64,000 nt of DNA, taken from NCBI GenBank assembly GCA_963705355.1, contig OY970070.1:1906960-1970959 (forward strand), in the 5' to 3' direction. Source of the stretch: an uncultured Thermoplasmata archaeon. GTDB lineage: Archaea > Thermoplasmatota > Thermoplasmata > UBA10834. The position numbers and the translations under genes were made by a program. Every line of letters begins with the position of its first letter. Within the stretch, counting starts at the first letter, position 1. Positions 4,337-55,363 of the stretch are shown here, piece after piece. Under the pieces are notes generated by a model, which saw only the letters and a program-made list of their open reading frames with translations, made no database searches and had not been told where the DNA came from.

Positions 4337-6337
4337 ATGCACATGGTTGACGACGGTGTAGGCCGGGCTATTTACCCTGGTGCGGCACCCTCTCCCGCCC
4401 CCCCTACCGAGTTCTCGCCAAAACCTGAACGGCATGAGGGCGGGATCGCAGCCGAAATCGCTGCTCTTGGGATAGAAAATCTGCGCGTTGCGGTTGCTTC
4501 CGGCGAGCGGCTCCTGTACTCACGCGACCAATCTGAGATCCCGCGCTTCCTCAGAGAGATCATGTTCAACTCGGTCCCCGAGGCAGTTGTTCTGGCGAAA
4601 TCGGCTGAGGCGGTCTCGGCCGTTGTTCGATTCGCCTCTTCGAATGGCATCACTGTCATACCCAGAGGTTCAGGCTCGTCGCCCTTCGGCGGTTCGGTCC
4701 CTGTCTCCGGAGGCATCGTGATCGATGTCTCGGGCATGGACAGGATCATCAACATCGATGTTCCAGGCAAGACGGCGAGTGTCGAGGCGGGAGCGAGATG
4801 GGCAGACCTGGATCATGAGCTGGAGAAGCACGGCCTATGCCTGAACACGAGTCCGTCGAGCAAGTTCTCGACCGTCGCGGGATGGGTCGCGACGGGCGGG
4901 ATGGGATTGAACAGCTTCTCGAAGGGTCATCTGAGTTCGAGTGTTCTGTCGGTCGATGTCGTGACTCCAGACGGGCTGAAGAGGACGGTCCAGAGCGGCG
5001 ACCCGATGTTCCCCGCGATCTTCGGAAGTGAAGGGCAGCTCGGGGTGATCACGGCAGTGACTCTTGGCGTCCGCAAGATCCCGAAGAGATTCAAGCCGCA
5101 TTTGATATTCTTCAAAGACCCGAAGAGCGCCTTGAACTTCACACGCTCTCTGGCAGAGAGTGGAGTCCACCCTGCTCACATCTTGTACGAGAGCGCCGCG
5201 AAGTTCTCTCTCATCAACAGGATGCTAGGCCAGAGCCGCTTCAGCGCCGCTGACGCCATCATCGTGAGCATCGAGGGCGAGGAGTCGGAGCAGCTTTACC
5301 AGAGCTTCACGAAGGCCGCGGGTCTCAAGGAGGAGAAGGAGTACCTCGCGCGGTACATGTGGAACGAGAGGTACTTCCCCATGAAGGTTCGCAAGTTCGG
5401 ACCGGGGATGCTTGGATCCGAGGTTATGGTGCCTCAGAGACTTCTTCCAGATGTTCTCACGAAGGCTGCCGACCTGTGCCAAGAGCTCGGGCTCGAGCCC
5501 CTCTTTGAGATACACTTCACCAATGAAGGCCATGGTCTGCTCCTGTGTTACTACGTGACGGACCAGGGCAACACGATAGGCTACACCCTGGACGCGCTCA
5601 AGTCCATGCTTCTCACATCGATGCTGATTGAGAGCGGCGCAAAGCCATACTCTGTCGGCATTTGGAACCATCCGTTCTCGAACGCCGAAGAGCGACCACG
5701 CGTCGATCGCCTGCGACAAGCGAAGGCTACAATGGATCCAAAGGGCGTCATGAACTCTGGAAAGTACTTCTCGCTCTCTGGAAGATTCGGCGGACTCGCC
5801 GCGATGGCCTTCAATCCCAGATTGATGAGGCCAGTGCTGAAGACGATGCGGGTCTTCTCCCCGATCACCATGCGATTCATGCGGATGGGATATGGTTTCG
5901 CTGCCAGGAGGCTGAAGCCGAAGTCAAGGAGCGAACTTCTTCGGATTGCAGACGAGTGCGCCATGTGCGGAGCTTGTGTGAGCGTCTGCCCGGCTTACCT
6001 CGTCGTGGGCGATGAGAGGGTCACCGGAAGAGGGAAGCTGTTGACTGTCAAGGCGATGGCGCGCGGCGCCAAGATATCGAAGGAGCACTCGGACAGGATC
6101 TTCCTGTGCATGAAGTGCAAGGCGTGCGAGCAGGTCTGTCAATCGAAGCTCGAGCTCGTCAAAGCCTACGAAGCACTTGAGAAGGAACTTGAGCAGATTC
6201 ACGGCAAGGACGCTCAGGAGATCGAGAAGTTCATCCGGTACGTGGAGAACACCTCCGAGTACGATGAGCTTGTCGAGCGCGGTCTCGTAATAGGTGCTCC
6301 GAAGCACGGGATGGGAGGTGGTGCGGCTGACGTTTGA
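4337..6337 (+). CDS. FAD-binding (PCMH/GlcD-type) oxidoreductase fused to C-terminal 2x[4Fe-4S] ferredoxin-like domain (D-lactate/glycolate dehydrogenase-like)
   Basis: FAD_binding_4 motifs (VIPRGSGSSPFGGSV, GSEGQLGVIT). Two C-terminal Cys clusters (CAMCGACVSVCP and CMKCKACEQVCQ). Confidence 0.8.
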   Translation: MHMVDDGVGRAIYPGAAPSPAPPTEFSPKPERHEGGIAAEIAALGIENLRVAVASGERLLYSRDQSEIPRFLREIMFNSVPEAVVLAKSAEAVSAVVRFASSNGITVIPRGSGSSPFGGSVPVSGGIVIDVSGMDRIINIDVPGKTASVEAGARWADLDHELEKHGLCLNTSPSSKFSTVAGWVATGGMGLNSFSKGHLSSSVLSVDVVTPDGLKRTVQSGDPMFPAIFGSEGQLGVITAVTLGVRKIPKRFKPHLIFFKDPKSALNFTRSLAESGVHPAHILYESAAKFSLINRMLGQSRFSAADAIIVSIEGEESEQLYQSFTKAAGLKEEKEYLARYMWNERYFPMKVRKFGPGMLGSEVMVPQRLLPDVLTKAADLCQELGLEPLFEIHFTNEGHGLLLCYYVTDQGNTIGYTLDALKSMLLTSMLIESGAKPYSVGIWNHPFSNAEERPRVDRLRQAKATMDPKGVMNSGKYFSLSGRFGGLAAMAFNPRLMRPVLKTMRVFSPITMRFMRMGYGFAARRLKPKSRSELLRIADECAMCGACVSVCPAYLVVGDERVTGRGKLLTVKAMARGAKISKEHSDRIFLCMKCKACEQVCQSKLELVKAYEALEKELEQIHGKDAQEIEKFIRYVENTSEYDELVERGLVIGAPKHGMGGGAADV

Positions 6338-7718
6338 GCGATACCACATACCCCTCAATACGGTTCAGGGAAGAGCGACACCAGTCCCGAAGTTCGTGAT
6401 AACGCGCACGGATAACTGCATCAACTGCGGCAAGTGCGAGAAGGCCTGCATCTATGGCGTGCACAAGAGGAGCGAGCAAGACCTGCGCAAGATGGCCGAC
6501 CCCATCAATCAGCTCTGCAAGAACTGCTTCAGATGCATAGAGGATTGCCCTCAGAGATCATTGTCAATGGCCCCTGGCACGGAATACAAGTCCTTGGGGC
6601 GCGGGACCTGGACCCCGCTGAGGATAACGACGATCTGGGGCGAGGCGGAGACAGGCAAGATTCCCGTTCTTGGCGCTGGCTACCGCGGCATGTTCGCTGG
6701 ACCTGGCTACGACGGCATGTGGACGGACATGTCCGAGATAGTCAGGCCCACGCGTGACGGTATCCACGGCAGAGAATTCATCTCAACGAGCGTCGACATC
6801 GGCAGAAAGCCCGCTTGGCTTGAGTTCGGGAAGAACGGCAATGTCCTCACCGAGATCCCGCCTATCATCGAGTTGCCCATACCTGTGATAGTGGACGTAA
6901 CGAGGCTGAGGTCGGTGAGCGATGATATGATGACTGGCTTCGCCCGCGCGGCAAAGCATCTGAACACTCTCATCCTGGCCTCTCCGGGTTCTCCGCTTTC
7001 TCAGGCGTCCGCGGAGCTCAACAGCCATTACGTCCCGGTGTTCCCGGAAGGCGCGGATGTTCGCACCATCGAGATACCCAAAGGGGTCCAGATGGTCGAA
7101 CTGCAATACGGATCTGGATGGAGAGGGGACGCGAATCTGTTCAGGTCGAGGTTTCCCGGTGTTGTCCTCTCCTTCAGGATGGAGTCCGGCAGAGGCATCG
7201 AGCAAAAGATCCTCGAGCTTGTCCAGGCCAAGGTCGACGCCGCCCATGTCCTCTATGACGAGGAGAGCGCGGAGCTCGACAGGAACGATTTCAGGCACGC
7301 TAAGGACAGCCTGCGTGCTATCCACAGAGCGCTGGTCGCAAGGGCGATTCGCGACCAGATCACTCTAATCGCTGGAGGAGGGATCGCCGCTGCGGAGCAT
7401 GTTCCGAAGAGCATCATCTGCGGTGCGGACATCGTCGCGCTCGAGAAGGCGCTGGTCATAGCGCTCGAGTGCAGAGATTGTATCAGTTGCTCGAAGGGCT
7501 CGTGCCCCATAAACCTGCACAGCGCGCCCCTAGATTGGGTCGAAGGGCGCGTGACCAACATGATTGGCGCTTGGAGAGACCAGCTTCTCGAGGTTCTCGG
7601 AGCCATGGGCCTCAGGGAAGTCCGAAGGCTGAGGGGAGAGTTTGGCAGGGCGATCTTCTATGAGGACGTCGAGCGAGAAGCGTTCTCGGAGATAGAAGGA
7701 GGCGAGACGAATGGCTGA
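6294..7718 (+). CDS. glutamate synthase large-subunit domain-2 (FMN) paralog with N-terminal 4Fe-4S ferredoxin domain
   Basis: N-terminal CINCGKCEKAC...CKNCFRCIEDCP. The C-terminus is a TIM-barrel like GltB domain 2 (IAGGGIAAAEHVPKSIICGADIVALEKA...CRDCISCSKGSCP) but lacks the canonical GGTGA block. It overlaps the next gene, suggesting an operon. Confidence 0.65.
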   Translation: MLRSTGWEVVRLTFERYHIPLNTVQGRATPVPKFVITRTDNCINCGKCEKACIYGVHKRSEQDLRKMADPINQLCKNCFRCIEDCPQRSLSMAPGTEYKSLGRGTWTPLRITTIWGEAETGKIPVLGAGYRGMFAGPGYDGMWTDMSEIVRPTRDGIHGREFISTSVDIGRKPAWLEFGKNGNVLTEIPPIIELPIPVIVDVTRLRSVSDDMMTGFARAAKHLNTLILASPGSPLSQASAELNSHYVPVFPEGADVRTIEIPKGVQMVELQYGSGWRGDANLFRSRFPGVVLSFRMESGRGIEQKILELVQAKVDAAHVLYDEESAELDRNDFRHAKDSLRAIHRALVARAIRDQITLIAGGGIAAAEHVPKSIICGADIVALEKALVIALECRDCISCSKGSCPINLHSAPLDWVEGRVTNMIGAWRDQLLEVLGAMGLREVRRLRGEFGRAIFYEDVEREAFSEIEGGETNG

Positions 7719-9222
7719 GGCCGAGAAGGTCTGCCCTAAGGATATCCCGGAGGCAGCCCTCATCCCCTCCGAGCATCTCAAGTTCGTCAACCGATTCACG
7801 GTGAAGAGGGCAGACACCTGCATCTCGTGCGGCACTTGCGCGAGTCTGTGCCCCTACGGAGTTCACAAGAGGATCGAGGGCCACGCAAAGATCCTCCCGC
7901 CAGACGATAGGAAGTGCATTGGACCGTCCTGCGAGGTTAACTACTTCTTCTGCGTCGCGAACTGCCCAACGAACTCGCTTTCAGTGAGCACAAGCGAGAC
8001 CTTCTTCAGCCTCGGCGACCCGCGTTGGACCTCTGAGATGATACTCGCCACTTGGGCCATGGCTGAGACCGGGAGGCCACTTCCGCTCGATCATCCCGGA
8101 AACGTCGGAGCTTCTGAGGGCGGGTTTGACAGACTGCAGTTCAAGCTCCCCGAACCGAAGGGGGGGTTCGAACCAGCGGAGATATGCACGGCTATCGACC
8201 TCAACAGGCGTGATTCTGGGGCGATGATCAGGATACCCATTCCGATCTACGGCGGGGGAATGTCATTCGGCTCTGTGAGCGTCTACACGATGGTCGCTAG
8301 GGCGAAGGCTGCCAAGAAGTGGAGCACATTCACCTGCACGGGAGAGGGAGGCTATCCAGACGCGCTGATCCCGTACAAGGACCATGTCATCACACAGATC
8401 GCCACTGGCCTGTTCGGCGTCCGCGAGGAGACCATCCAGCGCACTAGGATCGTCGAGTTCAAGTACGCTCAGGGGGCGAAGCCTGGCCTCGGGGGCCACC
8501 TGCTCCACGACAAGAACACGCCTGAAGTCGCGAGGATGCGAGAGGCCGTGCCGTATACGAGCCTGTTCTCACCGTTCCCGTTCCACAGTGTCTACTCGGT
8601 CGAGGACCACAAGAAGCATCTGGACTGGGCGCATGCGATCAATCCGACTGCACTTCTCGCGGTGAAGGTGTCGACGCCGAACGATGTCGAGATGGTGTCG
8701 GTCGGAAGCTACTACGCTGGAGCGCACATCGTCCATCTCGACGGCGGCTACGGAGGGACAGGCGCTGCGCCCGAGATCGCTAAGAAGAACATCGCGATGC
8801 CGATAGAGTATGCCATCCCGAAGGTCCATAAATTCCTCGTCAACGAGGGTATCCGAGACCAGATCACGCTGCTGGCCAGCGGAGGCCTCAGGACCGCGCT
8901 GGACGTCGCCAAGGCGATCGCCCTGGGAGCTGATGGTGCGGTCATCGGGACCGCGGACCTCGTTGCCCTCGGGTGCGTCAGATGCGGCAACTGCGAGAGC
9001 GGCCGAGGCTGTCCTCGTGGCATCGCGACTACAGACCCCATCCTGGACAAGCTGACAGATGCCGACTGGGGCGCCGAAAGGATCTCCAATCTCTACAGCG
9101 CCTGGAGGCTGCAGTGGTGCGAACTCCTTTCTAGGTTCGAGATGTCCGATATCGCGGAGCTGCGCGGCCGGACGGACTTGCTGAGGAACTCAGGCAACCC
9201 GGCGAAGGAGGTGGGCAGGTGA
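7711..9222 (+). CDS. gltB: glutamate synthase FMN-binding subunit (GltB domain 2, archaeal split type) with N-terminal ferredoxin domain
   Basis: Core FMN-domain blocks (HIVHLDGGYGGTGAAP, LLASGGLRTALDVAKAIALGADGAVIGTADLVALGCVRCGNCESGRGCPRGIATTD). N-terminal CISCGTCASLCP. Confidence 0.85.
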   Translation: MAEAEKVCPKDIPEAALIPSEHLKFVNRFTVKRADTCISCGTCASLCPYGVHKRIEGHAKILPPDDRKCIGPSCEVNYFFCVANCPTNSLSVSTSETFFSLGDPRWTSEMILATWAMAETGRPLPLDHPGNVGASEGGFDRLQFKLPEPKGGFEPAEICTAIDLNRRDSGAMIRIPIPIYGGGMSFGSVSVYTMVARAKAAKKWSTFTCTGEGGYPDALIPYKDHVITQIATGLFGVREETIQRTRIVEFKYAQGAKPGLGGHLLHDKNTPEVARMREAVPYTSLFSPFPFHSVYSVEDHKKHLDWAHAINPTALLAVKVSTPNDVEMVSVGSYYAGAHIVHLDGGYGGTGAAPEIAKKNIAMPIEYAIPKVHKFLVNEGIRDQITLLASGGLRTALDVAKAIALGADGAVIGTADLVALGCVRCGNCESGRGCPRGIATTDPILDKLTDADWGAERISNLYSAWRLQWCELLSRFEMSDIAELRGRTDLLRNSGNPAKEVGR

Positions 9223-21435: not shown

Positions 21436-21511
21436 TGGCGCCCCGGTCGGGATTCGGACCCGAGTCCCGAGCTCGACAGGCTCGGATGATAGGCCGCTAC
21501 ACTACCGGGGC
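21436..21511 (-). tRNA. tRNA-Asp (anticodon GTC), CCA encoded
   Basis: Manual fold of the reverse complement: acceptor GCCCCGG/CCGGGGC, anticodon stem CGAGC/GCTCG, loop CTGTCGA (GTC), T stem TCGGG/CCCGA, discriminator G, CCA. The T-loop reads TCCGAAT, i.e. C at position 55 instead of the near-universal U. Confidence 0.75.
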
Positions 21512-29389: not shown

Positions 29390-29464
29390 AGCGGGGTGGG
29401 GTAGCTTGGAAATCCCATCAGGCTCATAACCTGAAGATCGCTAGTTCAAATCTAGCCCCCGCTA
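29390..29464 (+). tRNA. tRNA-Met (CAT), initiator-like (A1:U72), no encoded CCA
   Basis: Acceptor AGCGGGG/CCCCGCT with an A1-U72 pair as in archaeal initiators. Anticodon stem TCAGG/CCTGA, loop CTCATAA. T arm GCTAG-TTCAAAT-CTAGC. Discriminator A. Confidence 0.85.
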
Positions 29465-48130: not shown

Positions 48131-48471
48131 TCTGATGGTCGTTGATTGGAAACGGAGCAGATGTTATCAGAGGAAGGGGCCGCCTTACTCCCCCCGAATT
48201 TGCAGTACCCGGCTTGGGAGCTCTTTCCTCGGCCTTGTTAGTCGCCCTTACCGGACGGAGGTCGAGGAACAATATGAGCCCCGTTGGGCATCCTGCCCAA
48301 GGCGGTCTCCCTTCCTCCTTTATCGTCAGTTGAGATCCGAGGAGTTCATCAGAGCCAGGGCAACTTATGAAGTCGCGAACACCAGTACCGCTGTCGGTAT
48401 TGCTAGCATTGCGCACTTCGACCCCAGCAAATCAGTCTCCCCCTTTTGTGTGCTCATCACCCGTTTCGACG

Positions 48472-50949
48472 CTATGCTATATAGGCTTGTCGGCGAGTCA
48501 GTGCGTTTCTTGGCGCAAAACGCGAATTTGCCTTTTTTCTGGGGTTCTTGGAGCTGAAAAGCTCGGAGAGCTTCTCTATATTGTATCCGAAAGGAAGGAG
48601 CATGCCCTCTGCTCCTCGCAGAAGTAGATCGACATAAGCATCCATATCGTACGCCTCATCTCCCGAGATGAACGAATCGACCTTCACTCGCTTGCGCGGG
48701 TCCTTGCTCTTGCAGTCGCATATCAAGAACCTCACGGCCTCTCCCGGGTTCACGTCAAAACCCTCGTCGTCCAGCTGCATGAGGGCTGCGACGCGGTCGT
48801 TGAACTGCTGATAGGCCCCGAGTCCCTGTGACACCCGCTTGGTCATCAGCAGCTTGCTCAGCGGAACCGCTTGAGACCTGACGGTCTCGACATAATCGTT
48901 CACGATGTCCAGCGCGGACGGTATGAGTTCTATGAACTGCTGCGAATCGTCCGCCTTTGAGAAGTTCGCGAGCAGCTCGTTCTGCATGTCCTTCACCAGC
49001 TCCGTCGTGTCGTGCTTCCTGAGCTCGATCCCGCGCAGTTTCAACTTCCCGTCCTCGAACATACCATAGTATCTGTTCAGAACGCCGACGCCGTTCGACC
49101 TGTGCGGCAGAAACACTATCCACTTGTATATCCCCTCCGGCTCGAGCGGGATGCCTATGTGGCCAGACACATGCTCGCAGAACTTCTCTGGATCGCCGTT
49201 CCCTTTCAGCCAGAGCGAATCCACGATTCCGTGGAGTATCTCGAACCCGTGCGCCTCTGCCATCTCGGACGCCTGCAGCATTATCTCCCTTCCGTACGCG
49301 TTGATGGCCTCGTGGCATTCTATTCTCCCGAACCTCGCGTTCCTGTAGCCCGTGTATCCGAAGCAGTTGTGCGTGAGCACCCCGTTGGCGAGCGCGAACC
49401 CGTGCAGCGGTTCGTCCACTCCGAGACAGTAGACATGGTCTCCAGACGGCCTGATTCTGCGCACGGACATCACGCGCATGTGGGTTATCGAGTTGCCGGA
49501 GCTGGATGCGCTGCTGTAGAGAGGCATGAGCGCTGGGAGCAGGCTTCCCTCTGTAACCCTGTCAGCTCTCTTCAGCACGAGCCGGTCCCCGTTCATGACA
49601 TAGCACGGATGGTCTGGTGTCAGTCTGATCCTGCTCTCTGCGAGGTTCAGCTCGATCATGTGCTCAGGTGCCGGGAACTTGAAGACCTTCGAGACGGTCT
49701 TCAGCGAAGGCTCCAGATTCCGGTCCAGCCCGAACGCCTCGAGCTTGTCATTGACCGTGCACTCGTCAGAATCTCCGCGAACATACCTCTCAACGATCTC
49801 GCCGACGGTGCGGACATCGAACCTTCCGCGCCTTCTGAACGGTATTTCGGTGTCAGAGTCCAGGCAGGTCACGAGCAACCATTTCAGAATGTCTACCCTC
49901 TCCTTGTAGAGCTTCGTATCCCCTATCCCGGCCTTCACCATCCTCTTGAGTCTCGTCCTGCGCTCCACCACGGGTTTGAGCACGCGCGGTATCAGTCCCA
50001 GTCGTTTGTCACATATGCCATATCCAAGAACAGGCACCCGTCTGGTGGGCTCGGGACAACAAGAGCATGTGACCGTCTCAGGCGAGATGTTGAACCTCAC
50101 CATGATGTTCGGATACAGCGATGTGAAATCCACTTCCAGAACGCGGTCGTGTATCCCGACCGCGGGCTCGTAGATGAAACCTCCGCGGTCTGATATGACG
50201 AGCTCCTCCGCGGTCTTGAACTTCTCCGGGAGGTTCTTCTTCCACATTATGACGCAGCCATCTTTGAGCGCGAGATTGGCCTGCATCGCGCTGATCGCGC
50301 TCCCAGGAGAGAGCCTCGCAAGTTCCTGGACGGGCACGCCAGATATGCGAGAGAGATCGGTCAGGCCGCCCAGGCCGCTCTCCATGAACATGAATGAGCT
50401 TGAGCGATCGATGTGGATCCTCCCGCGGAACTTGTACGATGGGGGCTTGTACTTGATCTGCCCGTATGTGAAGTATGATTTGCCCTTCCGGTCGGTCCTC
50501 TGGTCGTCGACGTCCCTACCCAACATGATCCCCTTGAGGCCGACATGCCTCGCCCGCTGGTACAGGTACGGGATGAGGAAGGCGTCTCCGTTGTCTGTGT
50601 AGATCACATCTGGATCCCCAGCTTTGACGATCTCTTGGATCCCTTCGAGGATAGTCTCCTCGTCACCGTCTACAACTTCGTCCCCTACTTTGGCAGAGAT
50701 CAGCTTGTCATCGAAAGTCGGTATTCCCTTCTTGGCTTCCGGCACAGCGCTTAGCTCAATTCCAGAGAGCGGAGGCATCTCGTAATCGATTTCGTACGGA
50801 TCGTCTATCATCCGCGGCCTCGGTCTGAACTCCAGCAGGCCCATGGGAAAGATGCTCTTCTCGCAGAAGTACCGCTGGCTGAATCTCAGATCGACAGTTG
50901 AACAACGTGTAATCTTTGTACCTTCCGCGATTGTCGATAGTATGCGCAA
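48472..50949 (-). CDS. family-B DNA polymerase homolog with disrupted catalytic motifs (inactivated PolB type), containing a mini-intein
   Basis: Motif A DFTSLYPNIM is intact. Motif B reads KWLLVT|CFGYTGY (the Asn of KxxxNSxYG is replaced). Motif C reads HGIVDS (first Asp of DTD lost). Exo I reads SGIELS (D to G). Exo II reads NGDAFLIPYL (D to L). The N-terminal domain lies in another frame (next feature). Confidence 0.7.
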   Translation of the reverse strand: MRILSTIAEGTKITRCSTVDLRFSQRYFCEKSIFPMGLLEFRPRPRMIDDPYEIDYEMPPLSGIELSAVPEAKKGIPTFDDKLISAKVGDEVVDGDEETILEGIQEIVKAGDPDVIYTDNGDAFLIPYLYQRARHVGLKGIMLGRDVDDQRTDRKGKSYFTYGQIKYKPPSYKFRGRIHIDRSSSFMFMESGLGGLTDLSRISGVPVQELARLSPGSAISAMQANLALKDGCVIMWKKNLPEKFKTAEELVISDRGGFIYEPAVGIHDRVLEVDFTSLYPNIMVRFNISPETVTCSCCPEPTRRVPVLGYGICDKRLGLIPRVLKPVVERRTRLKRMVKAGIGDTKLYKERVDILKWLLVTCLDSDTEIPFRRRGRFDVRTVGEIVERYVRGDSDECTVNDKLEAFGLDRNLEPSLKTVSKVFKFPAPEHMIELNLAESRIRLTPDHPCYVMNGDRLVLKRADRVTEGSLLPALMPLYSSASSSGNSITHMRVMSVRRIRPSGDHVYCLGVDEPLHGFALANGVLTHNCFGYTGYRNARFGRIECHEAINAYGREIMLQASEMAEAHGFEILHGIVDSLWLKGNGDPEKFCEHVSGHIGIPLEPEGIYKWIVFLPHRSNGVGVLNRYYGMFEDGKLKLRGIELRKHDTTELVKDMQNELLANFSKADDSQQFIELIPSALDIVNDYVETVRSQAVPLSKLLMTKRVSQGLGAYQQFNDRVAALMQLDDEGFDVNPGEAVRFLICDCKSKDPRKRVKVDSFISGDEAYDMDAYVDLLLRGAEGMLLPFGYNIEKLSELFSSKNPRKKANSRFAPRNALTRRQAYIA
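49366..49866 (-). mobile_element. mini-intein (about 167 aa, Hint domain only) inserted in PolB motif B
   Basis: It begins CLDSDTEIP after ...WLLVT. Block B is TPDHPCYV. It ends ...GVLTHN followed by Cys+1 (CFGYTGY). No LAGLIDADG or HNH endonuclease insert. Confidence 0.7.
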
Positions 50950-51229
50950 CGTCCTCGACTTTCGCGTAGTCTCTTATCGTGATCCCGAGCACTTCGCGTT
51001 CGTCATCTCCGAGCCATGTCCGTTTCATCTCCCGCCCGGTCGCGCTCACTTCGTCTAGAATCGGAAGCGCTCTCTCGAGATCGTCGAGGTTTTCGGGAGT
51101 GGAGTGCACGAATATCTTCGGGCGGAACGCCCGATCTACGATCTTGTTCGCGCCCTTTCGGGTTCTTACCCAGTATACGATGGAGTTTGTCTCGTACTCT
51201 GGGTAAATGTCGAGGAGCCAGCCTCTCAT
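50756..51229 (-). CDS. PolB N-terminal domain fragment in a different frame (apparent frameshift with downstream PolB ORF)
   Basis: MRGWLLDIYPEYETNSIVYWVRTRKG...FRPKIFVH matches the PolB N-terminal domain (LDIDY...IRLF...F.PYFY). The main ORF resumes with the RYLIDKGLIPM-equivalent (RYFCEKSIFPMG) in another frame. The overlap is 50756-50949. Confidence 0.5.
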   Translation of the reverse strand: MRGWLLDIYPEYETNSIVYWVRTRKGANKIVDRAFRPKIFVHSTPENLDDLERALPILDEVSATGREMKRTWLGDDEREVLGITIRDYAKVEDVAHTIDNRGRYKDYTLFNCRSEIQPAVLLREEHLSHGPAGVQTEAADDRRSVRNRLRDASALWN

Positions 51230-51516
51230 CTTTTGGACTCACTGCTCCCGATTCCCCCATCCTGGATTCCGTTGCTTTCATTCTCTTCTTTGAGATTCTT
51301 TTTCAGAGCTAGTATCTCCTTCTCGTGTTCCAGGAGCATCGAGAGAAGGGCCGACTCTGTTGGGTCGAGGCTTATCGCGTATGTCGATGCGGAAGCGTGC
51401 ATGCGCGCCCTGGTCACCAGAGAATCGAATGCTTCCCGGTCTCCACTCCTGAGCGCTCTCCGAAAATCGTTCCACTGCTGGGTCATCGCCTCAAGGGCCA
51501 AGCGGTATGTAGGCAC
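51226..51516 (-). CDS. small hypothetical protein (operonic with PolB)
   Basis: 96 aa. It overlaps its neighbours by 4 and 26 nt. No known motif. Confidence 0.3.
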   Translation of the reverse strand: MPTYRLALEAMTQQWNDFRRALRSGDREAFDSLVTRARMHASASTYAISLDPTESALLSMLLEHEKEILALKKNLKEENESNGIQDGGIGSSESKR

Positions 51517-52270
51517 CGTTCTTCCCGTCGGAATCCCCCCTGAACTCGTCTAGCGTTGCTTGGTTCCAAGGCACGGGCGAGAACACGATCTCCCGCTCCG
51601 CCCTCGGCAGCCGGAAGAGCAAGCCATCTCTTCTGGTGCGCATCTGAACGATCTGGTCCGAGTGTTCGTACAGCAATGCTGCCAGTTTCGGGCTTGGACG
51701 GACCTGCTGATGAGTGTTGTTCGTGAGCATGGAGATAGTCTCGTGCTCCTTCGTCACCCTGGATATGTCCTCTAGACACCTCCTCAGGAGCTGGTGTGAT
51801 TCCATCCACTTCATGTCCTTGTCGAGGAACATCTCGGTTATGGATGACACTATGACGGCGCACGGCGAGCTTCTCTCGACCTGTTCCTCGAGCTTCTCGT
51901 CGATCAGAGTCACGAGCTGATACGCAGTGAACGCCCTGGACACGTTCACGCGCGACAGGATCTCCCGCTTGTTTAGCCTCAGTCGCTTGCACAGAGAGCT
52001 GATGGCATATGGATCGATGGCATTCCCGCCGTCTATCCAGACGACCTCCTCGTCGAATTGCGAGATCGCGCGGACGCAGAGCAGGTGCAAAAGGCTGGAG
52101 GCGTAGCTGCTGTCGCTGTCGAGCAGCGCGACCTGGGCTGAACGGAAGCCGCCTATGAGCTCGTCTAGCTGCAGGATCGAGGTTTCCAGAACCCTCTCAT
52201 GGAGCAGCGGCTCCTCGCCGACTATCTGCACCAGCGGTTGTTCGAGCGCTGCTGTTCTCTGGATCTGCAA
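51491..52270 (-). CDS. RadA/RadB-like RecA-fold paralog with Walker A and B ablated (inactivated recombinase-like)
   Basis: It aligns with RadA/RadB blocks: LDELIGGF, VVWIDGGNAIDP, VSRAF (RadA VARAF), LTNNTHQQV (VTNQV). Walker A GxxGxGKT is replaced by LLDSDSSYASS. The Walker B Asp is Ser (AVIVSSIT). Confidence 0.55.
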   Translation of the reverse strand: MQIQRTAALEQPLVQIVGEEPLLHERVLETSILQLDELIGGFRSAQVALLDSDSSYASSLLHLLCVRAISQFDEEVVWIDGGNAIDPYAISSLCKRLRLNKREILSRVNVSRAFTAYQLVTLIDEKLEEQVERSSPCAVIVSSITEMFLDKDMKWMESHQLLRRCLEDISRVTKEHETISMLTNNTHQQVRPSPKLAALLYEHSDQIVQMRTRRDGLLFRLPRAEREIVFSPVPWNQATLDEFRGDSDGKNGAYIPLGP

Positions 52271-52474: not shown

Positions 52475-55363
52475 TTGAGATTCATCGGGAAGGGACAGAG
52501 GAAAATGGCTTCCAGATCATCTTCCAGAAAGCAAACACCACCGTCGAGGCCCCCGCCGACTCAGAGGACCTACGCGGCGCAAATAGAATCCACAGAGGTG
52601 AAGAGGTCGCGCAAGGCCGCCATACTTCAGCTCAAGATGGGCCGGCTAGCACACACGATAGGCATCGCATCCGGCCTCGCGCTAGCACTGACGGCCATAA
52701 TCGCGTACGGCATCATCAACTGGGAATTCCTCCGGAATGCTCCCGATATATTCGCCACTCTGAAATGGATAATTCCGCTAGTCGCAGGCGTGGTAGTCGC
52801 TGCGGTCGCACTCGCGATCAAATGGGAACCGTATTTCACGGACAGGGAGGAGCCGCACTTCGCGATGAGCATCGTCGCGCTCGTGGCTCCTGCCTTCATC
52901 ATAGCGCTCATAGTCCTGGACGAGTACGACTACGTGCAGCTCGGCAGGCCTGCTTGGCTCTATCCTGCCTCTCTCCTGGGGATATGTCTCACAGAGATAT
53001 CGCTCGCGATGACTTGGGAGGGTTCGAGTCCTCGCCGGACCGTCAGCATCGTCTCTGCGATCTTCCCGATTGTCCTGCTCGTATTCCCCATGGTCTACCG
53101 CTTCACGCCCGAGGAATTAGCCAGCACTCTTCCGATGGCATATCTCGGCAGCGCGGTCGCGATCCAGCTCAGCGGCTCGATGCTGCACATCATTGCGAGC
53201 TCGACATCTGTGCAGCAGCGAGAGGTTCTCAAGGCGAGCGACAGCAAACTGCGCGAGGAGCTCCAGGAACTCGAAAAGAAGCGGCACGCGCTGATATACA
53301 GAGAGGACGCGCTAAGATCCAAGGAGTCCGACCTCGAGACCCTTGAGAAGCGGCTCAGCGATGAGACGGCTTCGATAGAGGAAAGGAAGACCCAGGTAGC
53401 CGCGGCCGAGGCGGAGGCGGAGCAGCGTTTCCTGCAGTTGCGCGATGAGAGACAGAAAACCGCGAAGCAGCAGGCGGAGATAGAGGATGCCAAAGAGGCC
53501 CTGAAGCTGAGGCAATCCGATCTAGAGGCTCAGAGAAGGGAGCTGGAGAAGCGCTCCAAGGCGCTGCTCACGAAGGAAGAAGCTGTCTCCACTAGGGAGA
53601 GGGACGCCAACAGGATATTGATCGATGCTCAGGCCAAGGAGCGGGACATAAGGAACAGGCTCTCCGAGGTCGAGGCGGAAGAGAAGGCTCTCGATACCAT
53701 GCGCCAGGAGATCGACGAGCTTCAAGGGGCACTTGCGGACCGCGAGAAACAAGTGGGCGTCCGAGAGAGCGCGCTGGACATGAAGGTTCTGGAGATTGCG
53801 GCAGCGAGGGAAGAGCTTGGGACGGTTGCCAAAGAGAAGACTTCTGTCAAGACCCTCGAGCAGCAGTTGCTGATGAGGCAGGAGTCTCTCGCAGAAAAGG
53901 AAATCGCTCTTAAGACGTCTGAGGACGAGCTGCGTAAGAAATCCGAGCGTGCTGAGAGGCTGATTGCGAGAGCCGACAAGCAGATGAACGAGCTCATCGA
54001 GAAGGAGAACACACTCTTGGCTCGCGAAAAGACTGTCACCGACAATGAGTCCCAGCTGAGGGCGGAGGTCGAAGGCTTGAACGCCAAGCTGGAGGAGATG
54101 CAGAGCGCGCGTGAGTCGGTCACCGACAGGGAGAAGGAGTATCACAGTCTAACCGAGACCACCAGAACAAGACTCTCAACAGTGACATCTCAAGAGGAGG
54201 AGATCGTAAGGAAGATGGCCGCTCTCGAGCGAAGGGAGGAGAAGATCCGGGAGCTCGAGACGAGGCTCAGAACCGAGCACGACACGATGAGCTCCAAACT
54301 GAGGGAGATGCTCGAGAAGGAGAAGGATCTCAGCGCCCACGAAGACGAGATGAACCTGCGCTATGCGGAGCTCAAGGCGATGGAACGAGGGGTTCTGGAG
54401 AGCGTGGACGAGGTCGAGGCGGCCAGGACGTCCTTCGAGGTGCCAGAGGAGGGCGAACAGACTAAGACCTTGGCCTACAGAGAGAGGCGTTTGATTGAGA
54501 AAGAGCAGGAGATGAAGTCGCGGCTCTACCAGCGCGAGAAGGAGCTGGAGGCGCGCGAGCAGTCCCTGCGCGCGCATCTGAAGAAAGACATCGAGGGGAT
54601 GGAAGAGGCCGTCGAGAAGGAGTACGCTGAGGAGAAGGTCAAGACGGGAATAGAACGTCTGGACGCCCTGCTCATGGGCGGCATGCCCTTCGGGTCCAAC
54701 ATCACGTACGTCGGACCGCCATTCATAGGAAAGGAGACCGCCATCCTGTTGTTCTTGGCCGAGGGCCTCAAGAAGGGCATTCCAGCAGTGATTGTGACAA
54801 CCTCAAAATCCCCCGAAGAGATCTCCAAGGATATGGCGCCGATACTACCTACGTTCAAGGAATTCGAGCAGCTCGGTCTCGTGAACTGGGTAGACGCCAC
54901 CGGACTTCAGAGAGCCCCGAGCGCGAGAACTGGAAAACCCAGTCTCATTGCAGCGTTGGGCTCGGGAGATCTGGGCGGGATCGGCAAGGCGATCGACGGA
55001 TGCGTTAACAAGATACAGAAGCAGAGGCACCCATACTTCAGGTTCGCCTACATGTCTCTCTCGATGAGCGTGACGCAGTCGAACGAGAAGGACTCGTTCC
55101 AGTTCGTGCAGACCTTGGTCGGCAAGCTGCGGCAGGCCAACGCGATTTCGGTCTTTGCGCTCGAGCGCGGGATGCACACGGAGCAGCAGCTCGAGTCGAT
55201 TCAGCATCACATGACCGGCGCGATCCAGTTCAAAACGGACAAGCAGAAGACTCTGATAAGCGTCCAGGGCGTAGGCGATGCGCAGACCAGGGACTGGATC
55301 GAGTACAAGCACACGAACAGGGCCCTCATGATCGGAGCATTTTCACTTGAGAGGATAAGGTAG
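52475..55363 (+). CDS. membrane-anchored long coiled-coil protein with C-terminal KaiC/RadA-like domain (degenerate P-loop)
   Basis: About 6 N-terminal TM helices. About 520 aa of heptad-rich coiled coil (E/K/R/L-rich). The C-terminal domain has LDALLMGGMPFGSNITYVGPPFIGKETAILLFLAEGLKKGIPAVIVT (compare KaiC GPPGTGKT). The Walker B position lacks Asp (VFALERG). Confidence 0.65.
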   Translation: MRFIGKGQRKMASRSSSRKQTPPSRPPPTQRTYAAQIESTEVKRSRKAAILQLKMGRLAHTIGIASGLALALTAIIAYGIINWEFLRNAPDIFATLKWIIPLVAGVVVAAVALAIKWEPYFTDREEPHFAMSIVALVAPAFIIALIVLDEYDYVQLGRPAWLYPASLLGICLTEISLAMTWEGSSPRRTVSIVSAIFPIVLLVFPMVYRFTPEELASTLPMAYLGSAVAIQLSGSMLHIIASSTSVQQREVLKASDSKLREELQELEKKRHALIYREDALRSKESDLETLEKRLSDETASIEERKTQVAAAEAEAEQRFLQLRDERQKTAKQQAEIEDAKEALKLRQSDLEAQRRELEKRSKALLTKEEAVSTRERDANRILIDAQAKERDIRNRLSEVEAEEKALDTMRQEIDELQGALADREKQVGVRESALDMKVLEIAAAREELGTVAKEKTSVKTLEQQLLMRQESLAEKEIALKTSEDELRKKSERAERLIARADKQMNELIEKENTLLAREKTVTDNESQLRAEVEGLNAKLEEMQSARESVTDREKEYHSLTETTRTRLSTVTSQEEEIVRKMAALERREEKIRELETRLRTEHDTMSSKLREMLEKEKDLSAHEDEMNLRYAELKAMERGVLESVDEVEAARTSFEVPEEGEQTKTLAYRERRLIEKEQEMKSRLYQREKELEAREQSLRAHLKKDIEGMEEAVEKEYAEEKVKTGIERLDALLMGGMPFGSNITYVGPPFIGKETAILLFLAEGLKKGIPAVIVTTSKSPEEISKDMAPILPTFKEFEQLGLVNWVDATGLQRAPSARTGKPSLIAALGSGDLGGIGKAIDGCVNKIQKQRHPYFRFAYMSLSMSVTQSNEKDSFQFVQTLVGKLRQANAISVFALERGMHTEQQLESIQHHMTGAIQFKTDKQKTLISVQGVGDAQTRDWIEYKHTNRALMIGAFSLERIR

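Follow-up and report, generated by a model that had tools for sequence, protein, structure and literature searches.

How does an intein come to be kept in a DNA polymerase whose active-site motifs look inactivated? The question is raised by a stretch of 64,000 nucleotides from an uncultured Thermoplasmata archaeon (assembly GCA_963705355.1, contig OY970070.1, positions 1,906,960 to 1,970,959 of the forward strand; this whole stretch is called the window below), where the minus-strand gene for a family B DNA polymerase, polB2, contains an insert at positions 49366–49866. A preliminary description, made from the sequence alone, called the insert a Hint-only intein of roughly 167 amino acids (aa) inside a catalytically dead PolB homolog, and saw in its retention either selection on a non-catalytic protein or a recent inactivation. 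Our analysis makes it likely that the insert is a selfish class 1 mini-intein in motif B of a PolB2 polymerase that is probably active. The intein, its conserved blocks and the adjoining ends of its exteins are laid out as follows:

49366–49866, minus strand: mini-intein with a HINT splicing domain only, 167 aa, from Cys1 to His166-Asn167
49864–49866, minus strand: codon of Cys1, the nucleophile at intein position 1
49597–49620, minus strand: block B, TPDHPCYV, with Thr83, His86 and, at position B:12, Cys88
49417–49434, minus strand: block F, VYCLGV, with Cys147 at position F:4
49366–49383, minus strand: block G, GVLTHN, with penultimate His166 and terminal Asn167
49867–49884, minus strand: end of the N-extein, KWLLVT, first half of motif B, its Lys equivalent to KOD K487 in a HMMER alignment to 4flt
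49327–49365, minus strand: start of the C-extein, CFGYTGYRNARFG, second half of motif B, with the +1 Cys at 49363–49365; joined directly to KWLLVT in intein-free homologs

The minus-strand translation of the insert runs from CLDSDTEIPF through LTPDHPCYV to VYCLGVDEPLHGFALANGVLTHN, ends in GVLTHN, and is followed by Cys+1 in CFGYTGY. Both NCBIfam terminal models score above threshold (intein_Nterm, TIGR01445, 35.8 bits with a cutoff of 24.5; intein_Cterm, TIGR01443, 20.6 bits at block G with a cutoff of 15.6), and Pfam Intein_splicing (PF14890) matches with an E value of 4.5e-8 and 33.5 bits, its gathering score being 35.8. Neither a LAGLIDADG nor an HNH endonuclease domain was found in the 167 residues, for which the Pfam and NCBIfam scans gave splicing-domain matches only. 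A phmmer search of the PDB matched the Pab PolII intein (1.6e-6) and CDC21-1 mini-inteins, and the NCBIfam DP2 model aligned to the insert over the model's own intein region (E 2.7e-14). An AlphaFold2 model of the insert, built from 22 homologs, has a mean predicted local distance difference test score (pLDDT) of 92.4 and a predicted template modelling score of 0.86, with low confidence at residues 111–130 alone; this linker, which includes SSASSSGNS, is poorly conserved and lies at the place where 528-aa relatives of the intein carry LAGLIDADG_3 (below). When the model was compared with the PDB by Foldseek, there were 71 matches at E ≤ 1e-3 and ranks 1–21 were inteins only, the best folds being the Mvu TFIIB, Pho RadA, PolII and CDC21-1 mini-inteins with TM scores of about 0.8–0.85 (0.81–0.85 for the TFIIB, RadA and PolII inteins).

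The residues on which splicing would depend are strongly conserved. Cys1, Thr83, His86, Cys147, His166 and Asn167 are invariant in the 22-homolog alignment and at least 98% conserved in 105 mini-inteins; within block B, Thr83, Asp85, His86, Pro87 and Cys88 show no variation among the 22 aligned homologs, and the T.DH core is kept throughout the allele, Asgard copies included. Among the 120 closest homologs of the polymerase the junction can be read in 118, and Cys+1 is found in all 118. Such conservation is far beyond chance. The description as a Hint-only mini-intein is thus upheld at exactly 167 aa, and the residues that the preliminary description had singled out for checking (Cys1, the block B His, the terminal Asn and Cys+1) are all in place. 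From its sequence and modelled fold, we regard the insert as a class 1 mini-intein without a homing endonuclease, predicted to splice.

In the course suggested by these residues and the fold, the precursor would be translated with the intein within it, and Cys1, aided by block B Thr83 and His86, would undergo an N-S acyl shift. Attack by Cys+1 would then give a branched intermediate, cyclisation of Asn167 with the help of His166 would release the intein, and an S-N shift would restore the peptide bond, leaving a contiguous KWLLVTCFGYTGY helix. An Asp at F:4 is usual for class 1 inteins, though not strictly defining; here block F reads VYC, with Cys147 at F:4 in place of that Asp in every copy of the PolB2 intein allele examined. 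The Thermoplasmata clade has Cys at position B:12, and two Asgard copies (P0182 and P0196) have Trp there; in these two, Trp at B:12 and Cys at F:4 resemble the Trp and Cys of the class 3 "WCT" signature, despite the presence of Cys1 and the penultimate His. For the copy in the window a class 3 assignment is ruled out by Cys1, the penultimate His and a Cys at B:12. In one homolog that is 76% identical (P0014) the intein terminus is His-Thr and not His-Asn, possibly a splicing-defective variant or a sequencing error.

The insertion site can be read from alleles that lack the intein. Eight of the 120 closest homologs have an empty site (P0086, P0093, P0094, P0096, P0097, P0099, P0104 and P0105), and the boundaries of the insert match the gap in P0086 and P0104 to the residue. 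In these natural homologs without the intein the sequence is ILKWLLVT|CFGYTGYRNARFG, identical to the product predicted from splicing. HMMER aligns the intein-free KWLLVTCFGYTGY without a gap to KILANSYYGYYGY of Pyrococcus abyssi (Pab) PolB, the C-extein start CFGYTGYRNARFG falling opposite YYGYYGYAKARW. It was correctly noted earlier that the intein interrupts motif B, and the question whether its exteins rejoin into a contiguous PolB motif B is answered by the intein-free homologs, in which KWLLVT|CFGYTGY reconstitutes it. The insertion point T|C places Thr opposite the Ser of KxxxNS and Cys+1 opposite the residue that follows, equivalent to KOD S492|Y493. The K, W, L and V of KWLLVT are invariant over diverse PolB2 proteins, and since intein-free PolB2s carry KW[LIM]LVT|CFGY, the +1 Cys is a native conserved PolB2 residue of which the intein makes use. 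That KW[LI]LVTCFGY is invariant even in intein-free lineages is independent evidence for a functional constraint on the fingers of PolB2 that bind deoxynucleoside triphosphates (dNTPs).

The site is close to that of the pol-b inteins of PolB3. In the KOD precursor (exteins 1–406, 407–491 and 492–774; 406 + 85 = 491) and the Vent precursor the classical pol-b site lies at N|S, which is N491|S492 in KOD; the PolB2 intein appears to sit one residue downstream of it, and given this apparent offset the same hot spot looks to have been invaded independently. Of the other polymerase sites, a pol-a junction was seen in P0267 (HN|SLYPS) and the pol-c site is given in the literature as YGD|TDS. A protein search with a P. 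abyssi PolB fragment returned short proteins alone and no canonical pol-b junction, and tblastn against plasmids found no intein-split PolB3.

Orthologs keep the intein at this site in three forms: in the 118 readable junctions, the insert measures 161–169 aa in 104, is 528 aa long and carries LAGLIDADG_3 in six, and is absent from eight. The 528-aa forms have two LAGLIDADG motifs, occupy the same site as 168-aa mini-inteins and are interleaved with them. In a neighbour-joining tree of the exteins, empty alleles are nested in at least four places within the mini-intein clade, and in a sister clade near relatives carry now the 528-aa, now the 168-aa version. This is the pattern of the classical homing cycle, in which a site is invaded, the endonuclease is lost and now and then the intein is precisely lost. 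Pairwise distances of intein and extein are strongly correlated (Mantel r 0.85, with 0 of 999 permutations as high), so the mini-intein has been inherited mostly vertically, and in amino-acid distance the intein evolves about 1.5-fold faster than the extein. Compared codon by codon with three relatives, the window shows ratios of nonsynonymous to synonymous substitution (dN/dS) of 0.06–0.11 for the extein and 0.18–0.33 for the intein; both are constrained, and the selection on the host protein that the preliminary description had suspected is indeed present, as strong purifying selection. The intein would have entered PolB2 by way of a LAGLIDADG-bearing ancestor, lost its endonuclease and been handed down vertically since, and such a selfish element would persist because only precise deletion can clear it from an indispensable motif. 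One Thermoplasmata contig of 4.2 Mb (L005, CP070672.1) has at 5001–8768 a PolB2 with a 528-aa LAGLIDADG intein; no iRadA or PPB2 gene, the usual companions of polB2 (below), stands ahead of it, and an uncharacterised 663-aa protein is encoded upstream instead.

Beyond these close homologs, the PolB2 proteins of two Asgard groups, Hodarchaeales and Kariarchaeaceae, have the same intein allele, which is specific to PolB2 and occurs in Thermoplasmata and part of the Asgard archaea. PolB2 itself is present at no fewer than 592 loci of GTDB species genomes, bacteria included, and the motif is nearly always KW[LIM]LVT|CFGY without an intein; among 80 of these loci an intein was found in L007, L008, L011 and L059 only. 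The bacterial PolB2s from metagenome-assembled genomes of Acidobacteriota, Thermodesulfobacteriota, Chloroflexi and Armatimonadetes (L023, L046, L055, L058, L065, L078–L080 and L086) read KW[LM]LV[TVC]|CFGY and are intein-free at the site. When 1.84 billion representative proteins were searched with the intein by phmmer, 84 relatives were returned; the best 26 or so of these 84 are PolB2 proteins with an intein at the same site, the rest sit in MCM, SMC, radical SAM and other hosts, and PolB3 inteins are not among the 84. Intein alleles cluster by insertion site, and in this search the intein is unrelated to PolB3 inteins.

Is the host a dead protein? The parts of the gene that bear on this are:

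48472–51229, minus strand: whole polB2 gene, ATG at 51229 and stop at 48472–48474, 918 aa if the base at 50896 (below) is skipped
50107–50130, minus strand: motif A, DFTSLYPN (DFRSLYPS in Pab PolB), catalytic Asp and steric-gate Tyr kept
49213–49233, minus strand: motif C, HGIVDSL (YIDTDGL in Pab PolB), Tyr changed to His and the first Asp to Ile, distal metal-binding Asp kept

The protein has the Pfam domains DNA_pol_B and DNA_pol_B_exo1, and its nearest homolog (P0001) is uninterrupted, 924 aa long and 97% identical. The exonuclease motifs are disrupted: the Exo I DxE has no counterpart in the host and no conserved replacement among relatives, the Asp of Exo II is substituted (DNGDAFLIPYL against YNGDNFDFPYL), and the HMMER comparison with Pab PolB gave no alignable motif for the YxxxD of Exo III. 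The polymerase motifs are altered in part. Motif B retains its Lys and has Val in place of the Asn (KOD N491), and the KxY motif is RxY; in PolB2 alignment A2 the D, F, S and P of motif A and the distal Asp of motif C (D670) are invariant. The claim that both exonuclease and polymerase catalysis had been lost therefore stands for the exonuclease, whose carboxylates are gone, and is not supported for the polymerase, which keeps the Asp of motif A, the Lys of motif B and the distal Asp of motif C.

Its motif pattern, its operon and pairwise similarity all place the host in the PolB2 family as we read the sequences. A "type B DNA-directed DNA polymerase" of a haloarchaeal plasmid, encoded there in the order Cdc6-hyp-hyp-polB (hyp, hypothetical protein), is 34.7% identical over 98% of the length (E 2e-115), and the best E value with Thermococcales PolB3 structures is 6.7e-50. 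The operon consists of two further genes upstream of polB2:

51226–51486, minus strand: PPB2 (arCOG07300 / DUF8156), small helical subunit of 86 aa, its stop overlapping the polB2 start (ATGA)
51491–52270, minus strand: iRadA, RadA/Rad51 homolog of 259 aa (Pfam Rad51, E 8e-8)

PPB2 is 70% identical to an 86-aa DUF8156 protein of L003 and holds the same position in the four related loci L001–L004, where the order iRadA-PPB2-PolB2 is kept as a whole. In iRadA the Walker A motif is destroyed (GSGKT to DSSYA), LLDSDSSYASS standing opposite FGEFGSGKTQL of the P. furiosus RadA ATPase domain. The same arrangement is given for PolB2 by Makarova 2014 and by a 2025 study of the mutasome (PMC11791011), in which a mutasome of PolB2 with PPB2 and iRadA is a proposed model (PMC11791011). 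Homology and gene context show the PolB2 of the window to be the catalytic subunit of an iRadA-PPB2-PolB2 "mutasome" operon, with a dead proofreading exonuclease and with its two metal-binding aspartates, motif B lysine and steric-gate tyrosine preserved.

Opinion on the family has changed. Rogozin 2008 described the same motif pattern, called the family "apparently inactivated" and noted the conserved distal aspartate (PMC2527604), and an inactive reading was published again in 2014 (PMC4104785). Sulfolobus PolB2 (Dpo2), which is without the first motif C Asp, has since been found to be a robust exonuclease-free polymerase that extends mismatched and lesion-opposed termini (PMC8764526) and to be needed for damage-induced mutagenesis (PMC7390963), and the 2025 mutasome study terms the earlier prediction of inactivity erroneous (PMC11791011). 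By analogy with Sulfolobus Dpo2, the Thermoplasmata PolB2 most likely works as a translesion extender polymerase. Nor does "recent inactivation" describe the motif changes, which are old and common to archaea and bacteria. The label "catalytically dead" is likewise not supported for a family whose catalytic residues are conserved and whose Sulfolobus member with the same pattern works. Because PolB2 looks dead by its motifs and Sulfolobus members nevertheless function, the paradox raised by the preliminary description largely dissolves: the intein probably sits in an active enzyme, as inteins usually do, and its presence in the most conserved motif of PolB2 is what intein biology leads one to expect.

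The copy of polB2 in the window has a defect of its own, which the preliminary description had missed:

50896, minus strand: inserted base, T on the coding strand and A on the plus strand, shifting the polB2 frame by +1 near codon 111

As it stands, the gene is split into a 157-aa open reading frame (ORF; 50756–51229, beginning MRGWLLDIYPEYE) and an 825-aa ORF (48472–50949), the two frames joining at ...TTC AAC T GTC GAT.... The nearest relative is a JGI metagenome contig (L001) with 96.6% identity over 7.2 kb, and the insertion is one of only two indels between them; in blastn L001, which encodes the uninterrupted 924-aa protein, reads TTCAAC-GTCGAT where the window reads TTCAACTGTCGAT. The extra base lies outside any homopolymer and is absent from every homolog examined, the reading frame being uninterrupted in all of the approximately 120 close homologs. 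Downstream, 825 codons are open without a stop, and the comparison of the window with L001 gave no sign of relaxed selection in the window lineage (extein dN/dS 0.108, as for intact pairs). Since the downstream frame is open and dN/dS is normal, the event is one of two things, an inactivation of very recent date or an error in the assembly or consensus. Programmed +1 frameshifting was considered and set aside as unlikely, as the nearest relative reads through without the extra base and there is no stop or rare codon at the site.

Several of these observations weigh against a functional intein in an active polymerase. The change of the motif B Asn to Val and of the KxY Lys to Arg could reduce or alter activity; activity of the Thermoplasmata PolB2 is extrapolated from Sulfolobales, and splicing is predicted; the Pfam Intein_splicing match falls 2.3 bits under its gathering score; and with the frameshift in place the host and its intein may not be made in full. 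Because F:4 is Cys and not the usual Asp, the fine mechanism of splicing may also deviate from the textbook course. The frameshift gives most substance to a different account, in which the extra base at 50896 truly exists and has newly turned polB2 into a pseudogene, so that the full precursor is not made and the intein is a remnant that has not yet decayed. That the insertion relative to so close a relative as L001 is not in a homopolymer speaks for it, and PolB2 is dispensable in Haloferax (an unpublished observation cited in a review, PMC7776575), but the stop-free downstream codons, the ordinary extein dN/dS and the intact frames of all close homologs do not favor it; we hold it to be a real contender that falls somewhat short of even chances. 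It is compatible with a selfish mini-intein in a probably active PolB2 as the explanation for the family. The idea that the host is a catalytically dead structural homolog, whose intein has to splice for no other reason than the folding of a non-enzymatic scaffold, draws on the missing Exo I, II and III carboxylates, the lost motif C Tyr and first Asp and motif B Asn, the published family readings of 2008 and 2014 (PMC2527604, PMC4104785) and the fact that activity of euryarchaeal and Thermoplasmata PolB2 rests on analogy. We judge it unlikely, because a scaffold would have no reason to retain a motif A Asp, a distal motif C Asp, a motif B Lys and a steric-gate Tyr that are invariant across distant PolB2s; Dpo2, moreover, shares the motif C defect and yet is a robust polymerase (PMC8764526) that is genetically required for damage-induced mutagenesis (PMC7390963).

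Two further accounts concern the intein itself. It might be a conditional switch, with disulfides among Cys1, Cys+1, Cys147 and, in this clade, Cys88 making its splicing depend on redox state or stress. Redox-trapped archaeal inteins such as Pab PolII provide precedents. An endonuclease-free intein has been kept under purifying selection across a clade in which the proportion of differing extein sites reaches about 0.57, the Cys at F:4 is invariant and unusual, and the host operon is damage-inducible in Sulfolobales (PMC11791011). These facts must be set against the intein-free alleles nested repeatedly within the clade and the lack of an intein in most PolB2s of other lineages, which indicate that the intein can be dispensed with; any intein in a needed protein should show purifying selection on its splicing residues, and the disulfides are putative, so that a switch strikes us as improbable. 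We give equally small chances to the intein being a post-translational gate on the mutagenic PolB2 mutasome, or to its being an allele intermediate between class 1 and class 3. That the insert is a non-splicing HINT-like or lineage-specific domain retained in the mature polymerase would accord with the slightly sub-threshold Pfam score and with splicing being a prediction, but it is very hard to reconcile with nucleophiles and assisting residues that are all invariant, boundaries that coincide with empty sites to the residue and endonuclease-bearing versions at the same site; in addition, 167 residues placed inside the helix of motif B would disrupt the fingers that bind dNTPs, and we consider this the least probable account of all.

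Returning to the selfish mini-intein, its nearest counterpart by position is the pol-b allele of PolB3 (Tko Pol-2/PI-PkoII and Tli Pol-1/PI-TliII), also a class 1 intein in motif B (KxxxNSxYG) of a family B polymerase, with a terminal His-Asn and with both LAGLIDADG-bearing and mini forms. The two differ in that the host here is PolB2 and the +1 residue is Cys, whereas pol-b has Ser, and PI-TkoII (2cw7), at 18% identity, ranks no higher than 20th among the fold matches. In architecture the insert is closer to the solved archaeal mini-inteins (Pab/Pho PolII, Pho/Pab CDC21-1, Pho RadA and Mvu TFIIB), which share its size of about 165–185 aa, HINT fold, lack of an endonuclease, Cys1 and TxxH and are its best sequence and fold matches; identities are 19–26%, hosts and insertion sites are different, and the Cys at F:4 sets the insert apart. 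The operon, for its part, resembles the PolB2/Dpo2 mutasome of Sulfolobales, haloarchaea and some bacteria in gene order, in an iRadA without Walker A, in disrupted Exo motifs and in a motif C that has lost its Tyr and first Asp and kept the distal Asp, with the difference that in this Thermoplasmata clade and some Asgard archaea the catalytic subunit must presumably splice first.

An intein in PolB2 was not mentioned in the searchable literature, InBase lying outside the search. Makarova 2014 reports inteins in PolB3 and in PolB1 of Nitrososphaera gargensis only, a Haloferax review mentions them for PolB3 only, the word "intein" is absent from two PolB2-specific studies, and the text of the Kazlauskas 2020 PolB survey contains neither "intein" nor "PolB2". 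What seems new here is the PolB2-specific allele in its mini, endonuclease-bearing and empty forms. We conclude that the insert is a selfish mini-intein of an ordinary sort, a new allele of a type already familiar, accompanied by a frameshift peculiar to this sequence. In practical terms, the intein should be removed before PolB2 "mutasome" subunits are expressed or modelled, and compact cysteine-dependent mini-inteins of mesophilic archaea may serve as protein-engineering parts.

The surroundings of the operon were also inspected. A hidden Markov model of the allele run against six-frame ORFs found no intein in the window besides that at 49366–49866. On the plus strand at 52475–55363, divergent from iRadA-PPB2-PolB2, lies a gene whose 962-aa product combines a membrane region at its N terminus with a very long coiled coil and, at the C terminus, a KaiC-like ATPase (PF06745, DUF7504); L001 and L003 have the same neighbour, and in L004 a divergent gene for a 784-aa protein without recorded domain matches occupies its position and is probably the same neighbour. 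On the other side, L002 (4191–5022) and L003 (7751–9303) have two or three additional small genes that separate polB2 from a convergent TctA transporter gene, among them one for a 173-aa HTH_HVO_0163_N regulator, at a place where the window has only about 340 bp (48131–48471). Two tRNA genes, at 29390–29464 on the plus strand and 21439–21511 on the minus strand, are the sole matches in the window at the Rfam gathering threshold, and its G+C content is 56.6%.

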